Of a DNA stretch of 58,683 nt, positions 9,519 through 14,177 are shown one piece after another. A program made the translations under genes and the position numbers. The stretch's first letter is position 1. Each line of letters starts with the position of its first letter. The stretch comes from an uncultured bacterium (GTDB lineage Bacteria; Fidelibacterota; Marinisomatia; Marinisomatales; JACNKV01), in contig CAZYDH010000009.1 in assembly GCA_964645915.1 (NCBI GenBank), positions 1 to 58,683 on the forward strand. Reading direction: 5' to 3'. Below the pieces are notes generated by a model, which was given only the letters and a program-made list of their open reading frames with translations, was not told the origin of the DNA and did not search any database.

Positions 9519-10263
9519 AACAGTACTTATTACAGGTGCAAGCAGTGGAATTGGGGAAGCATTAGCCTATGCTTATTCAAATCCAACTTCAACTATTGGA
9601 CTTATTTCTCGTCGGAAAGAAGTTTTAGATATAGTCGCAAAGAAATGCAAGGAATTAGGAGCGGAAGTTTATATCTATCCGATTGATATATCTAATCAAG
9701 TCGCTGTCGAAAAAGCTGTTAAAGATTTCTTAAAACAATCCGATCAGATCGATGTAGTTATTGCTAACGCAGGTATTGGAGGAATTGACAATATCGAATG
9801 TGGAGACGCAACAGAAACGAATAATATTCTTTCTACAAATATACTAGGTATTTCTAATGTCGTGATCCCTTGTATTCCAAGTATGATTGAGAATAATGAG
9901 GGTCATGTTGTAATTTTAAGTTCAGTGGCTGGTTTCCGTGGTATGATCAAACATGGAGCATATTCCTCTTCTAAAACTGCTGTTCGAATACTAGGAGATG
10001 GCTGGCGATTTGCTCTTTCGAGAAACAATATTTATGTTACAAATATTTGCCCTGGATTTATTGATACACCATTAGTACAAAAAAATCGATTTAATATGCC
10101 ATTTTTAATGAGCCCGGAAGCAGCAGCTATAAAGATCAAATCTGCGATTGAAAACAAGAAAAAGTGCTATGTTTTTCCGTGGCAGTGGCGATTTTTATTA
10201 CCACTGATCCGGATTATTCCCGATCGATTGATCCAATGGGCTAGTCTCAAGTTCAACTTCTAG
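9511..10263 (+). CDS. Short-chain dehydrogenase/reductase
   Basis: TGASSGIG, ANAG, YSSSK; start moved to ATG 9511 (MNKTVLITG), overlapping the SSS gene end. Confidence 0.9.
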   Translation: MNKTVLITGASSGIGEALAYAYSNPTSTIGLISRRKEVLDIVAKKCKELGAEVYIYPIDISNQVAVEKAVKDFLKQSDQIDVVIANAGIGGIDNIECGDATETNNILSTNILGISNVVIPCIPSMIENNEGHVVILSSVAGFRGMIKHGAYSSSKTAVRILGDGWRFALSRNNIYVTNICPGFIDTPLVQKNRFNMPFLMSPEAAAIKIKSAIENKKKCYVFPWQWRFLLPLIRIIPDRLIQWASLKFNF

Positions 10264-11631
10264 AGGAATATCCTTTTTTACATCTGCTCTTGCTTCTATT
10301 TTTTTATAAGTAACTTTTAACCAAGTTAAAGAAAGACTTATAGACACTGTAACCGAAAACATCATTGAATACCAAATCCATTCGAGAGGTTTGTTAAATA
10401 CAAATGTAAATATGATTGCTAAGGGTGCGGATATTCCACCTACCCTAACGATAGTTAATACTAACATGGGCAGACCTTTTCCTAGTCCCTGAAGTGTTCT
10501 TCCACTGGTCATACCAATAGGAATAAGTGGATATACAATTGTGATCAATCTTAAAAATGTAATTGCGATTTCTTTGATATTTGGATCAGATGTGAAACTT
10601 GCAGTGATCCATGGTGCAAAGATATACACCGATGAAGAAAAAATGAATGTAATAAAGATACAACGAGTCATTGCGTATTTCACGACCGATTTCACTTTAG
10701 CCATCTCTCCAGCACCGTAAAACATACCAACCAAAGTTGTCACTGCTGTAGCAATTGCGATGATAGGTAAGAATACAAAATGTTCTATTCGATGTCCAAT
10801 TTGATATGCTGCAACGGCATCAGTTGAATGATAAACTAATATTCGATTGAAGACTCCACCTCCTACCGCCATGATCATCATGGAAAGAGATGCAGGAATA
10901 CCCACTTTCATAATATCTTTAATAATATACAGAGATGGAGAAAAATCTTTCAGTTCAAACTGAATATATGTGTGATCTTTGAAAAAGAGCATAAAAATAA
11001 AAATGAAGAAAACAATAATCTGGCTGATTACAGTTGCGGCTGCTGCACCCTGGACACCCATCTTCAATGTAAATATTAAAATAGGATCTAATATGATATT
11101 TAAAATTGTTCCAAATCCGGCTACTATCATTGGAAGCTTCATATCACCTTCGCCCGATAAAATGGATCGGAAAAACATTGAAAAGATCATAAAGGGCAGA
11201 CCATATATTGCCATTTGTAAATATGACCATGACATAGACATTAAATCATCGGGGACACCTATGTTTAACAGTATCTTTTGACCATACAATAATCCAACTG
11301 AAACAAGAATAACACTCACAAATACGCCAAAGGCAACCGCATGTTCAGCGGTATTATCCGCGCTTCTTTTATCCCTCATTCCAATAAACCTTGCGATGGA
11401 AGCGGTTACCCCTGATCCTAACCCTGCCGTCAGTCCGAGGACGAAAAACATTAGCGGCATGTTAAAAGAAACTGCAGCGATTGCATCGCCACTAATTCGA
11501 CCGATAAACATCATGTCCACCATCATATATAAAGTTTGGATACCCATTCCTGCCATCATGGGTAACGCAAGTCTCCATAAAGCTTTTGGTGGATTACTTA
11601 AAAATTCTGTTAATCTGGATTCTTTAGACAC
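10198..11631 (-). CDS. MATE-family efflux transporter
   Basis: LALPMM, VDMMFIGR, NIILDPILIF, GVQGAAAATVISQ; GTG start. Confidence 0.9.
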   Translation of the reverse strand: MSKESRLTEFLSNPPKALWRLALPMMAGMGIQTLYMMVDMMFIGRISGDAIAAVSFNMPLMFFVLGLTAGLGSGVTASIARFIGMRDKRSADNTAEHAVAFGVFVSVILVSVGLLYGQKILLNIGVPDDLMSMSWSYLQMAIYGLPFMIFSMFFRSILSGEGDMKLPMIVAGFGTILNIILDPILIFTLKMGVQGAAAATVISQIIVFFIFIFMLFFKDHTYIQFELKDFSPSLYIIKDIMKVGIPASLSMMIMAVGGGVFNRILVYHSTDAVAAYQIGHRIEHFVFLPIIAIATAVTTLVGMFYGAGEMAKVKSVVKYAMTRCIFITFIFSSSVYIFAPWITASFTSDPNIKEIAITFLRLITIVYPLIPIGMTSGRTLQGLGKGLPMLVLTIVRVGGISAPLAIIFTFVFNKPLEWIWYSMMFSVTVSISLSLTWLKVTYKKIEARADVKKDIPLEVELETSPLDQSIGNNPDQW

Positions 11632-11660
11632 GTTTCAGTTTTGGATAATGAAATAAATAT

Positions 11661-11680
11661 TTAATTGCGACCGCAATTAA
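11661..11680 (-). promoter_or_regulatory. SECIS-like hairpin downstream of the FmdB-family UGA
   Basis: Minus strand TTAATTGC-GGTC-GCAATTAA: 8-bp perfect stem; G-first loop begins after 15 nt from the UGA at 11690-11688; no clean U-tract follows. Confidence 0.6.
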
Positions 11681-11681
11681 G

Positions 11682-11894
11682 TTAACCTCATGAAAAACCT
11701 GAAGATGAACATCCACGTCCATGAGTGTGAGATGATGAAGAGTTTGATGAAACTGATGGTGCCGATAATTGACGTTTAGACTTGTATTCCCCGCAATCCG
11801 GACATTGAATTTCATCATCAGGGATTATACTCGACCAAATCAATTCTTCGAACATTTTCCCACAATTTTCGCAACGATAATCATACATCGGCAT
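11682..11894 (-). CDS. FmdB-family zinc-ribbon protein, probable selenoprotein ending GCSSSGFS-U-G
   Basis: MPMYDYRCxxC...CPxC motif; track ORF stops at TGA, which is followed by GGT TAA and a SECIS-like hairpin. Confidence 0.8.
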
Positions 11895-12496: not shown

Positions 12497-13086
12497 GAAG
12501 GTCTACTCACACATTTAAAATGATTTAAGAGTTGATCACGTAAAAACAATCTTGCTCGCATCAACCTAACTTTCACATTTGCTTCACTGATATCTAAAAT
12601 ATCAGCTGTATCTTTGATAGACATATTCTCTAAATCTCGGAGAATAAAAACAGACCGATAAATCTCGGATAATTCATCCAACGCACGCATCAAACAATCT
12701 CGAAAAGCTTCATCATCCAATTTCTCTTCTAAATAATCTGGCCAATCGTGAAGTTCATGCCCTTTTAGAGGTTTTACTAAAGACTCATCCAGTGACATAT
12801 TTGGATCAATACGTTTTTTCTCTCTGAATTTTCCGTATGCAATATTCGAAGCTATCCGGTACAGCCAAGTATACAACGATGCTTTACCAGAAAATGTACC
12901 AATTTTATTAATCATTGTGATAAATGTTTCCTGCAAAACGTCTTCAGCATCTTCTTGATTTTGCATAATTCGAAGTGCCAGATTATATATCCTTGGTGAG
13001 TGGATTCGTACAAGTCCCGCGAATGCAGACTGATCTCCACCCTTAGCATCCGTAACCAATTGTTTTTCTGTCCGTTTTTCTACCAT
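12493..13086 (-). CDS. ECF sigma-70 factor
   Basis: DAEDVLQETF, SLYTWLYRIASN (region 2); YRSVFILRDLENMS...TADIL...VKVRLMRAR (region 4). Confidence 0.95.
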   Translation of the reverse strand: MVEKRTEKQLVTDAKGGDQSAFAGLVRIHSPRIYNLALRIMQNQEDAEDVLQETFITMINKIGTFSGKASLYTWLYRIASNIAYGKFREKKRIDPNMSLDESLVKPLKGHELHDWPDYLEEKLDDEAFRDCLMRALDELSEIYRSVFILRDLENMSIKDTADILDISEANVKVRLMRARLFLRDQLLNHFKCVSRPS

Positions 13087-13117
13087 TTTATTATTGGATG
13101 AGTAAAAATCAGATTTG

Positions 13118-13681
13118 TTACAAACTAAACAAGAGGATAATAATTGGAATTAATATTCCAATAGCTAGATATACTCCTCCTCTGCCGTTGACTCCTTTTT
13201 TCCCCTTAACCATAAACAAAGAAGTCACCGCAAATAATATTAAAGCACCGCAAAAGATATCAGAAAACCAAGTCCACCATCGATTAGGATTATAATGCAA
13301 TAAATTCACCTGATAGAATAAAGGTCTTTTACGTAGGAATTCTACATTTCCTTGACCGGTATTTGTATTAGCAATAATAGAAGAACCACCCTTCAGAAAT
13401 ATTTTTATCTTATTTTCATTCGGATAATAATATTTTTGCATGGTTCTACCTTCAGCAACATCATCAGCAACCTGTTTAATCATTTCAGGAGTGGCAATTC
13501 CCTTCGATAAATTAATACTCGTCGTAAAAAGTTTATTCTCAACTGTGTAATTTGGATTCCAGTCATTAAGATGGTTTAGTGCAATACCGGATAGCCCAAA
13601 AATGATAGAAGTCCCTATGAAAAAGAAACCAAAATCCCGATGAAGAATACGACTCCATTTTCTAACTTGTTTCATAGTCAT
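13118..13681 (-). CDS. PepSY-associated TM helix protein
   Basis: RILHRDFGFF...SGIALNH and NLLHYNP...WTWFSD motifs. Confidence 0.8.
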   Translation of the reverse strand: MTMKQVRKWSRILHRDFGFFFIGTSIIFGLSGIALNHLNDWNPNYTVENKLFTTSINLSKGIATPEMIKQVADDVAEGRTMQKYYYPNENKIKIFLKGGSSIIANTNTGQGNVEFLRKRPLFYQVNLLHYNPNRWWTWFSDIFCGALILFAVTSLFMVKGKKGVNGRGGVYLAIGILIPIIILLFSL

Positions 13682-13688
13682 AGGGTAT

Positions 13689-14177
13689 TTAGTTCACAGT
13701 TTTATGTGATACATAGTCTAAATAGTATTCTGAAAAATGATCCTTACCACAGGCTTTCAAAGAATCTCTCATCATTTCAATATATTCAAAAGTGCTGACT
13801 TTTCTATCGTGTTCTTGAATGGTGTTTGCATTCTCTTCCCATTTAAGAAAAGTAGATTCATCAATAATATTTTCATTAACGATACCGGTTACTTCGATTT
13901 CAGTTCCGACTATTTCATCATCAAACCGTTCTTCAGCAAATACGTGAAGACTATAGTCATCAGTGACAAGAAGGATTTTCTTTCCGCCATGTTTACATAC
14001 ATGGTCAACAATTCCGGTTGTACGAACAGCTTGTTGAACATGGTTTTGTGCTAATTCTTCAAATTGATTCATAGGCACTACAACTGAACTTGAATCAATT
14101 TTTTCACTACTATTACATCCACCAAAAATTAATAAAATGGGAATGACAAATAAGTTGGTTCGTAGAAAATATTTCAT
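13689..14177 (-). CDS. Hypothetical lipoprotein, possible OB-fold
   Basis: Lipobox FGGC; GIVDHVCKHGGKK motif. Confidence 0.6.
   Translation of the reverse strand: MKYFLRTNLFVIPILLIFGGCNSSEKIDSSSVVVPMNQFEELAQNHVQQAVRTTGIVDHVCKHGGKKILLVTDDYSLHVFAEERFDDEIVGTEIEVTGIVNENIIDESTFLKWEENANTIQEHDRKVSTFEYIEMMRDSLKACGKDHFSEYYLDYVSHKTVN

Follow-up and report, generated by a model that had tools for sequence, protein, structure and literature searches.

Selenocysteine (Sec) has been predicted before in proteins that carry the FmdB zinc ribbon. The FmdB selenoprotein of the Global Ocean Sampling (GOS) metagenome, as given in the accessible part of that report, contains a CxxU motif with Sec inside the ribbon motif (PMC2398784), and Table 1 of a 2026 review, which comprises about 119 selenoprotein families or subfamilies, enters FmdB only as 'UxxU, TIGR02605' (PMC13188914, cited here and below from its available sections). 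A different arrangement is presented here for a stretch of DNA of 58,683 nucleotides (nt; this whole stretch is referred to as the window) from an uncultured bacterium of the phylum Fidelibacterota, order Marinisomatales (contig CAZYDH010000009.1). On the minus strand of the window, from 13121 to 10198, lie the genes for an extracytoplasmic function (ECF) sigma factor, a zinc-type anti-sigma factor, a DUF6132 protein, a small membrane protein, an FmdB-type zinc-ribbon protein and a MATE exporter. The genes for the small membrane protein and the FmdB-type protein each contain an in-frame TGA, and it is very probable that the six genes form one operon and that both small genes are true selenoprotein genes.

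The FmdB product of this operon and the GOS protein are alike in the TIGR02605/PF09723 zinc ribbon, the small size and the predicted Sec. However, Sec replaces a ribbon Cys in the GOS protein as described in the accessible text (PMC2398784), whereas here the four ribbon Cys are intact and Sec69 of 70 residues is located in a Ser-rich tail. Unlike the GOS type, the operon's type has Sec as the penultimate or third-from-last residue, a Cys 5–8 residues upstream and a selenocysteine insertion sequence (SECIS) past the stop codon. A comparable position is found in the families with C-terminal Sec (UXX-star 1 and 2, KCU-star/DUF466 and Cys-Cys-COOH SaoC), in which Sec likewise lies 1–3 residues from the C-terminus, so that the SECIS must lie beyond the stop; such tails have been suggested to bind metals or substrates (PMC13188914). 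Compared by the names and motifs in Table 1, the folds of these families differ, NF041211 being glutaredoxin-like (PMC13188914), and none of their models matched P0001 at E 0.1 or better. Searches with NF041197 (dual-CXXC small selenoprotein) and NF041211 (UXX-star 2) gave no match to P0001 at E 0.1 or better, and their best matches in the genome lie elsewhere and are below cut-off.

Several selenoprotein genes co-transcribed with a transporter are likewise found in the SAO and Tso operons, and NCBIfam is said to hold curated models for families of this type (PMC13188914). Their components differ, the operon described here is much smaller, and the NCBIfam models gave no match at E 0.1 or better. 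Nothing like a GVPT-U membrane mini-protein appears in Table 1 of the review (PMC13188914), and no prior report of either Sec family was found in the literature searched, supplements and subscription papers being outside its scope. Neither NCBIfam nor Pfam contains either family with Sec at these positions. Both proteins represent further bacterial selenoprotein families, the FmdB type with a new Sec position in a known domain, and both are found in a new regulatory setting. The 48-residue single-pass family is represented by Cys forms in 357 species genomes and by the Sec form in 43 of the 201 genomes of the phylum that were sampled. A redox-active Cys...Sec tail would offer a tangible starting point for the possible function of the very large FmdB family, and since a recognisable promoter links selenoproteins to an ECF/anti-sigma switch, their regulation can be tested in a marine lineage of high abundance.

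With respect to regulation, the operon resembles SigR-RsrA, the switch of actinomycetes for thiol-disulfide stress, which has an autoregulated promoter and thioredoxins in its regulon. Both systems display an ECF sigma factor with an adjoining small soluble HxxxCxxC anti-sigma factor, a candidate one in the present case, for which the autoregulated promoter and the thioredoxins in the regulon are likewise predicted. They differ in the promoter consensus (GTAAC-N16-CATC here), in the phylum and in the score against the RsrA model (21.2 bits versus a cut-off of 62.5 bits); moreover, the predicted regulon here adds two selenoproteins and a MATE exporter. The FmdB tail in turn resembles the flexible Gly-Cys-Sec-Gly arm in which animal thioredoxin reductase ends, since in both cases the penultimate Sec is followed by Gly and a nearby Cys is able to form a selenenylsulfide. 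However, Cys and Sec of the FmdB tail lie 5–8 residues apart instead of side by side, the tail is carried by a zinc ribbon of 45 residues and not by a flavoenzyme, and there is no homology between the two. Persulfide- or sulfide-responsive operons of the BigR, SqrR and CstR type contain gene sets similar to those around the Cys forms of the small protein (rhodanese, TauE/SafE, ArsR-family, sulfide:quinone oxidoreductase (SQR)-like flavoprotein, DsrE, thioredoxin), whereas the operon described here is probably regulated by an ECF sigma and zinc-type anti-sigma (ZAS) pair and no persulfide dioxygenase was seen. In the literature searched, neither the small Cys/Sec membrane protein nor FmdB-Sec was found described as part of the BigR, SqrR or CstR systems.

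Conservation of the two in-frame TGA codons

The core unit consists of the following features (positions are those of the window; aa, amino acids; ORF, open reading frame).

13095..13121, minus strand: candidate ECF-type promoter, −35 GTAAC (13121-13117), 16-nt spacer, −10 CATCCA (13100-13095)
12493..13086, minus strand: ECF sigma factor, 197 aa; TIGR02937 108.8 bits (cut-off 42.9), Sigma70_r2 and Sigma70_r4_2 also match
12248..12496, minus strand: candidate cytoplasmic zinc-type anti-sigma factor, 82 aa; H34-x3-C38-x2-C41 (HMEECPEC), without hydrophobic segment
12042..12251, minus strand: DUF6132 membrane protein, 69 aa; PF19628 28.1 bits (gathering score 23.2)
11896..12042, minus strand: predicted small single-pass membrane selenoprotein, 48 aa with read-through; TGA 11955-11953, true stop TAA 11898-11896
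11924..11949, minus strand: SECIS-like hairpin 1, stem-loop tcctca-GGG-tgagga at 11938-11924, within the coding region of the small ORF
11682..11894, minus strand: predicted FmdB-type zinc-ribbon selenoprotein, 70 aa with read-through; TGA 11690-11688, true stop TAA 11684-11682
11661..11680, minus strand: SECIS-like hairpin 2, ttaattgc-GGTC-gcaattaa, wholly beyond the true stop of FmdB
10198..11631, minus strand: MATE family efflux transporter, 477 aa, GTG start; TIGR00797 248.8 bits (cut-off 147.4, residues 24-420), PF01554 also matches

The initial annotation had described the five central genes as coupled, and all four junctions of this tight arrangement could be read from the sequence. ATGA overlaps join sigma to anti-sigma (12496-12493) and anti-sigma to DUF6132 (12251-12248), a TAATG overlap joins DUF6132 to the small ORF (12044-12040), and a single A separates the TAA of the small ORF (11898-11896) from the FmdB ATG at 11894. 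This TAA-A-ATG junction holds only if the TGA of the small ORF is read through. Cys or Sec motifs had likewise been noted in four consecutive small products, all of which were found: HMEECPEC in the anti-sigma factor, GCKSGTC in the DUF6132 product, where this C-x4-C motif is situated between two hydrophobic segments, T-TGA-G in the small ORF and two CxxC plus C62...GFS-TGA-G in FmdB.

Read with TGA as Sec (U), the small protein has the sequence MSDLLTIILIVGLWYLINRIILPKAGVPT-U30-GVPHYPQGEDKTEKIEEK, with the TGA at codon 30 in the context ...GVPT-TGA-G.... A search of 41 genomes from the order detected it in 15, the window's own genome included, and each match contains exactly one TGA at the same place. 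A profile search over the 201 phylum genomes yielded 44 matches, 43 of them with one TGA; the 44th is weak and partial and has TAA instead. In all 15 loci of the order the frame stays open for 15–31 codons past the TGA and closes −14 to +11 nt from the FmdB start, and the gap from the TGA itself to that start would measure 50–82 nt. Beyond Sec30, Pro at +3 is nearly invariant.

Comparison of the small-protein profile with 1.84 billion database representatives gave 507 matches, the best 150 of which were classed. Among these, 116 stop at the Sec column (113 recognised by pattern and 3 on inspection, of which one falls two residues short of it), 29 go on with Cys (...LPRLGIPT-C-MSGAC...), 3 carry Trp and the remaining 2 have diverged or bear no relation. 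When 13 Sec and 24 Cys forms (37 sequences) are aligned, P23, G26, T29 and C/U30 are invariant, the last being Cys in all 24 Cys forms. Two Cys forms that lack the MSGxC insert read GVPT-C-AVPxP, which is nearly the pattern of the Sec forms. The best 80 of the genomes with confirmed Cys forms belong mostly to Planctomycetota, and Acidobacteriota, Deltaproteobacteria-type lineages and Spirochaetota are also represented. Pfam and NCBIfam release 20 hold no model for the small protein in either form, and the sole result from the ESM Atlas was a planctomycete cluster at 0.87. As a side observation, the three sequences with Trp at the Sec/Cys column (P0201, P0254 and P0271) could be encoded by a genuine TGG or by a TGA that was translated with a code in which TGA=Trp. 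Moreover, C-x-S-G-x-C beside a membrane helix is common to DUF6132 (G-C-K-S-G-T-C) and the Cys forms of the small protein (T-C-M-S-G-A-C), a resemblance in sequence that could indicate common chemistry or distant kinship.

The FmdB product matches TIGR02605 with 56.6 bits (cut-off 31.3) and PF09723 with 51.4 bits (cut-off 34.4). Two CxxC motifs are followed by the Ser-rich tail and then by C62-SSSGFS-U69-G70 (...GRGCSSSGFS-U-G-stop), and the ribbon residues C8, C11, C31 and C34 are invariant in relatives. The gene directly follows the small gene in 15 of 15 loci of the order, and all 15 FmdB genes end in ...C-x(3-7)-GF[STG]-TGA-[Gly/Ala]-(0-1 codon)-stop. A single-sequence search, which gave 2 matches, was replaced by a profile of the 15 orthologues with 923 matches; the best 120 of these together with P0003 make up the 121 relatives examined. 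Directly before the Sec column stop 118 of them, 107 with the ending [GP]F[STGA] and 11 at the same aligned column (SAYT, NFG, DFG). The other three (P0103, P0110 and P0117) go on as ...T-C-TN, with the Cys aligned to the Sec column of ...GFG-U-AN, and close relatives of these three end one residue earlier. By name, the nearest database relatives indicate Marinimicrobia/SAR406, and P0104 is labelled Caldithrix abyssi by its source. In an AlphaFold2 model, the ribbon (residues 1–45) displays predicted local distance difference test (pLDDT) values of 77–85, and the tail (residues 48–70) is mostly below 50. This low confidence fits, without proving, that the tail may be a flexible arm.

The same relatives bear out the expectation that standard annotation truncates such genes. 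Most public entries stop both products at the TGA column, and therefore the Sec residue is missing from public protein sets, which amounts to a systematic annotation error.

SECIS-like hairpins and the selenocysteine machinery

G-loop hairpins had been noted after both UGAs and were recovered, with GGG in hairpin 1 and GGTC in hairpin 2. The loop of hairpin 1 begins about 22–24 nt past the U of UGA. Hairpin 2 begins 10 nt past the UGA, and its loop begins 18 nt past the U. The minimum free energies (MFE) are −8.4 kcal/mol for the 42 nt after the small-ORF TGA and −7.0 kcal/mol for hairpin 2, values that refer to a fixed 42-nt stretch and not to the own window of the bacterial SECIS (bSECIS) model. 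This model demands a loop of 3–9 nt with G in its first two positions, a stem of 4 bp or more, a distance of 16–37 nt from the UGA and an MFE at or below −7.5 kcal/mol (PMC13188914), and both hairpins fit its geometry.

The hairpins after both TGAs are more than chance. One fixed hairpin rule holds in 13 of 15 small-ORF loci and 12 of 15 FmdB loci, and the same rule holds after 15 of the 413 TGA-terminated ORFs of at least 100 aa in the own genome (3.6%). RNAalifold detected a four-pair core in each alignment, and in both hairpins three of the four consensus positions show pairs changed on both sides with pairing kept. The stem of hairpin 1 appears in relatives as catcc/ggatg, ctgtcca/tggacag or ttctca/tgagaa, that of hairpin 2 as ctgc/gcag, cgcc/ggtg, cacc/ggtg or ccgca/tgcgg, with GGTC, AGTT or GTT(G) in the loop of the latter. 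Throughout, the loops keep G then G/U at 17–23 nt after the UGA. GGUC is also the apical loop of the SECIS of E. coli fdhF. Other genes of the genome with an in-frame TGA have hairpins of the same style, with the loops GGTCT, GGT and GTT at 19–26 nt. Two Rfam matches to archaeal C/D-box snoRNAs at 11699-11758 on the plus strand, opposite to FmdB, reach 26.4 bits versus a gathering score of 45 and were taken as chance.

As stated in the initial annotation, selA, selB, selC and selD are not present within the window. All four components are located elsewhere in the genome (1.93 Mb, 54 contigs, 96% complete), where the search for them had been set beforehand as a possible refutation. The tRNA-Sec scores 64.1 bits, over its family cut-off, and has the anticodon tca according to ARAGORN. 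The genes selA (523 bits) and selB (371 bits) are adjacent on contig 7, both over their family cut-offs, and selD (399 bits, over cut-off; C15:10994-11920) contains one in-frame TGA of its own. A genome-wide reassignment of TGA (codes 4 or 25) was rejected because selA and selB contain no internal stop and TGA terminates 413 ORFs of at least 100 aa; selD has the single TGA mentioned. With these 413 ORFs, TGA looks like a minority stop in the A+T-rich genome.

Carriage of the small gene is nested within genomes that use Sec. selA was detected in 149 of the 201 phylum genomes, including 42 of the 43 carriers of the small gene, and only 1 of the 52 selA-negative genomes carries it. The families without selA (0/13, 0/33 and 0/2 genomes) contain no carrier. 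Since related genomes are non-independent, these counts are given without a statistic.

Further ORFs with one in-frame TGA and a SECIS-like hairpin are situated at C25:5729-6181, C20:948-1982 (minus strand), C36:7295-7945, C8:45231-46415, C10:34260-35723 and C4:87449-88864. By recall of their motifs, they are presumably peroxiredoxin-like (PKASTPG-U-TTEG), thioredoxin-like (W-U-TWC) and DsbA-like (Q-U-PYC) proteins, and for the rest a DPCG-U protein, a multihaem CxxCH protein (GAT-U-GDAG) and an uncertain CDT-U-NPN protein. The genome seems rich in selenoproteins. The underlying scan for TGA plus hairpin was crude, its 146 rows being mostly out-of-frame noise, and served only to pick a few plausible genes.

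In conclusion, both UGAs behave as Sec codons, because the TGA is conserved, Cys homologues exist, the SECIS-like hairpins show covariation, the Sec machinery is complete and carriage is nested in selA-positive genomes. The proposal of two tandem selenoproteins thereby gains strong support. If both TGAs were instead ordinary stops, the genes would encode a 29-aa membrane peptide and a 68-aa FmdB protein, as public gene calls read them, and the hairpins would be terminators, attenuators or mRNA-stability elements. The weakness of several hairpins would suit this reading, as would the location of hairpin 2, which is intergenic before MATE and followed by an A/T-rich stretch in the own locus. However, ordinary stops would not be expected to coincide exactly with a Cys column in homologues of both families. 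Neither do they match a frame that is open past the first TGA up to the start of the next gene, nor a second TGA after which a Gly/Ala codon, no more than one additional codon and another stop invariably come, both in 15 of 15 loci. The conserved G then G/U of the loops, the nested carriage and a genome in which TGA elsewhere serves as a standard stop and selD is of the Sec type also argue against ordinary stops, which are thus very unlikely.

Certain points weigh against two selenoproteins nonetheless. Selenium in both products is a prediction from sequence, and carrier genome G200 (93% complete) shows no selA. The Cys forms of FmdB amount to only 3 among 121 relatives and are known from protein sequence alone. 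Apart from Pro at +3, the peptide past Sec30 is poorly conserved, and its 'PQxEE' mostly mirrors the hairpin stem, a changed stem bringing a changed peptide (HPVDE, PVQSGQ). Regarding the hairpins, the threshold of −7.5 kcal/mol is reached by hairpin 1 and narrowly missed by hairpin 2, and it is reached in 9 of 15 small-ORF loci and 10 of 15 FmdB loci. The small-ORF hairpin of genome G009 is very weak (−2.0), and 2–3 loci per gene fail the strict hairpin rule.

Regulation, conserved partners and proposed function

The promoter candidate is located 9 nt before the sigma ATG, and its −35 element overlaps the stop codon of the PepSY_TM-like gene upstream. GTAAC-N16-YATC[ACT]A has 13 matches in the genome, one of which is the operon's own promoter. 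A relaxed motif lies ahead of sigma in 12 of 12 relatives with a sigma match (13 of 13 loci with the own one). It is found 45–86 nt before sigma in 5 loci and 411–470 nt before sigma in 7 loci, the latter being exactly those with a thioredoxin gene inserted upstream of sigma. Moreover, two of the 13 genomic matches precede distant thioredoxin genes (PF00085, E 1.1e-33 and 5.9e-25), 165 and 64 nt upstream; these copies, TTTGTAAC-N16-YATC, are situated at C8:16670 (plus strand) and C54:1183 (minus strand). Both thioredoxin genes likely belong to the same ECF regulon. By analogy, the pattern points to an autoregulated ECF sigma factor that drives thioredoxins in a SigR/RsrA-like thiol-stress regulon. 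Another match, in contig C1, falls within a glycosyltransferase-like ORF of 363 aa and was regarded as fortuitous. In relatives' loci L042 and L046 a second relaxed motif, which may be an internal promoter ahead of DUF6132, occurs some 984 and 960 nt past the start of sigma, either within the DUF1858-like gene or behind it.

The earlier family calls stand for sigma, DUF6132, FmdB/Zn_ribbon_8 and MATE, which exceed their cut-offs, whereas the anti-sigma factor yields sub-threshold matches only. It matches the RsrA model TIGR03988 with E 2.3e-4, at the bit score given above, has no PF13490 match at E 0.1 or better in the Pfam scan and aligns its HxxxCxxC motif with that of RsiW (5WUQ) at E 0.18. 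It is also 32% identical (E 1e-8) to a planctomycete protein that matches zf-HC2 at 1.4e-9. Judged by family and promoter, the sigma/anti-sigma pair is probably a thiol switch. The initial annotation had considered such a role for the anti-sigma factor, which now receives indirect support from the conserved ECF-type promoter that is also found before thioredoxin genes.

Around the Cys forms of the small protein in other phyla, neighbours were counted in 45 of the best 80 loci, namely those that could be centred by pattern, the other 35 being left out.

Rhodanese-YgaP: 28 of 45 Cys-form loci
zf-HC2 anti-sigma (ZAS) and ECF sigma: 19 of 45
Thioredoxin: 15 of 45
TauE/SafE, directly downstream: 14 of 45
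ArsR: 13 of 45
Pyr_redox_2 flavoprotein: 10 of 45
DsrE: 10 of 45

From these neighbourhoods it follows that the small protein is consistently accompanied by a thiol switch, by proteins of sulfur transfer and by a membrane exporter. FmdB and MATE occur in 0 of the 80 Cys-form loci of other phyla (pattern search, then tblastn), and gene content thus marks the FmdB-Sec protein and MATE as apparent additions of the Fidelibacterota version. The operon is extended in other families of this phylum, where the interval from the anti-sigma gene to that of the small protein encodes a DUF1858-like protein with CxxC (E 3e-4, under its cut-off), in many cases a rhodanese (E 5e-17), and also DUF6132 and DUF302 (E 1.7e-22). 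Such versions with DUF1858-like, rhodanese and DUF302 genes are found in relatives' loci L037-L048; the same-genus relatives L035 and L036 keep the DUF1858-like gene and a 145-aa ORF. The conserved neighbours suggest reactive-sulfur handling rather than selenium sensing. A selenium-sensing role, as considered initially, is not upheld, since these neighbours point to sulfur/thiol chemistry; selenium serves here as a catalytic or ligand atom.

The explanation that best accounts for the locus as a whole, a Sec operon under a thiol switch, appears rather likely. The anti-sigma factor, which carries HxxxCxxC and lacks a transmembrane segment, would hold the sigma factor until its zinc-thiolate site is oxidised or modified, and the freed sigma would read GTAAC-N16-CATC promoters at its own operon and the thioredoxin genes. 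UGA30 of the 48-aa protein is very probably recoded via a SECIS hairpin inside its own reading frame, and UGA69 of the 70-aa FmdB via one entirely beyond the real stop, so that Sec is the penultimate residue. Because R19 and K24 follow the helix, the small protein is predicted by the positive-inside rule to be oriented N-out/C-in, which would place Sec30 at the cytoplasmic membrane face. On the presumably disordered Ser-rich arm of FmdB, Cys62 and Sec69 might cycle through a selenenylsulfide as a swinging thiol/selenol arm, a pair which the co-induced thioredoxins would keep reduced. Both Sec proteins, together with the CxSGxC of DUF6132, could capture or reduce thiol-reactive species at the membrane, the likeliest being sulfane sulfur or persulfide, and these would be passed to an exporter, MATE here and TauE/SafE in the Cys-form relatives. 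Reactive sulfur species are proposed as the substrate only tentatively. More doubtful still is that the membrane Sec protein and the zinc-ribbon Cys...Sec tail form a dedicated selenol relay that loads thiol-reactive sulfur (or a soft electrophile) onto MATE, or clears it for MATE, under a zinc-thiolate anti-sigma switch that also drives thioredoxins. With such a relay, efflux or detoxification would depend on selenoproteins in a manner that has so far not been described, and its Cys-based ancestor would be widespread in Planctomycetota, Acidobacteriota, Deltaproteobacteria-type lineages and Spirochaetota.

Other functions have to be weighed against sulfur relay. The selenoproteins might be real and the module handle soft metals or metalloids (Hg, As, Cu, Cd, Te), with the tails as ligands, the anti-sigma factor as metal sensor and MATE for efflux. 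C-terminal Cys/Sec tails and small Cys-rich membrane proteins indeed resemble metal-handling proteins, and many transporter-linked selenoproteins have been implicated in Hg or As resistance, in which Sec may be a metal ligand (PMC13188914). However, mer, ars, cop and czc genes were not encountered in the conserved neighbourhood, where rhodanese, DUF302, thioredoxin, TauE, DsrE and an SQR-like oxidoreductase recur, and the promoter motif precedes thioredoxins. ArsR, found in 13 of the 45 Cys-form loci, could speak for metals, yet some ArsR-family regulators sense persulfides, and a metal-handling module is considered unlikely. Less probable again is that the operon senses or traffics selenium itself, for instance in selenide/selenite detoxification or delivery to SelD. 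Cys forms were found in at least 357 species genomes and have neighbours of the same kind, meaning that selenium is not required for the chemistry, and the loci examined contain no selD, selA, selB or recognised selenium transporter. The presence of two selenoproteins in one operon would fit such a role, as would rhodanese in the relatives' versions, rhodanese-type proteins having been proposed as selenium carriers; the restriction of the gene to Sec-using genomes would fit as well but is expected for any selenoprotein. Finally, the small Sec products could be exported peptides of the bacteriocin type or of the ribosomally synthesised and post-translationally modified (RiPP) type, with MATE as dedicated exporter. 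The loci examined showed no modifying enzyme, leader-type motif or immunity gene, the ribbon of FmdB is a zinc-binding fold of the cytoplasm, P0001 does not match TIGR04081, and the Cys forms sit with TauE and rhodanese instead of MATE. Against this stand the position of the small genes next to an exporter, the weaker NCBIfam matches of MATE, which include exporters of peptide products (WgkD, MbnM), and a 'selenobacteriocin' family in the table of the review (PMC13188914). An exported peptide is, on balance, highly improbable.

The sulfur-relay explanation meets difficulties of its own. Since none of the 80 Cys-form loci contains FmdB or MATE, a chain from relay to exporter is not universal to the small protein. 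The own operon lacks rhodanese, DUF302 and DUF1858, which were lost from it in the window's genus, and its anti-sigma factor reaches no family cut-off. Recognition of the motif by the operon's sigma factor is presumed from the DNA, and the membrane topology, the selenenylsulfide and any substrate are likewise inferred.

Extent of the unit and flanking genes

The order sigma, anti-sigma, ..., DUF6132, ..., small-U, FmdB-U, MATE is kept in 11 of 14 relatives' loci. Among the three that deviate, one has no DUF6132 match, one ends at a contig edge and one lacks sigma or MATE. Taken individually, sigma and DUF6132 are each syntenic in 12 of 14 relatives, and the FmdB gene is followed by MATE in 12 of 14.

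The initial annotation had proposed a module of eight genes. Eight co-oriented ORFs, all on the minus strand and spanning 14177 to 10198, were indeed read from the window sequence, but the two upstream genes lie before the promoter.

13118-13681, minus strand: PepSY_TM_like_2, 187 aa; PF16357 E 1.7e-11, outside the conserved unit
13689-14177, minus strand: lipoprotein-like ORF, 162 aa; matches no family, outside the conserved unit

Among the 14 relatives these two genes are limited to 3 same-genus loci, and they were rejected as members of the unit. Further upstream, a 601-aa CitMHS/Na-sulfate-symporter-like transporter with two TrkA_C domains is encoded at 14254-16059 on the minus strand. Its gene also precedes the promoter and is syntenic in 10 of 14 relatives.

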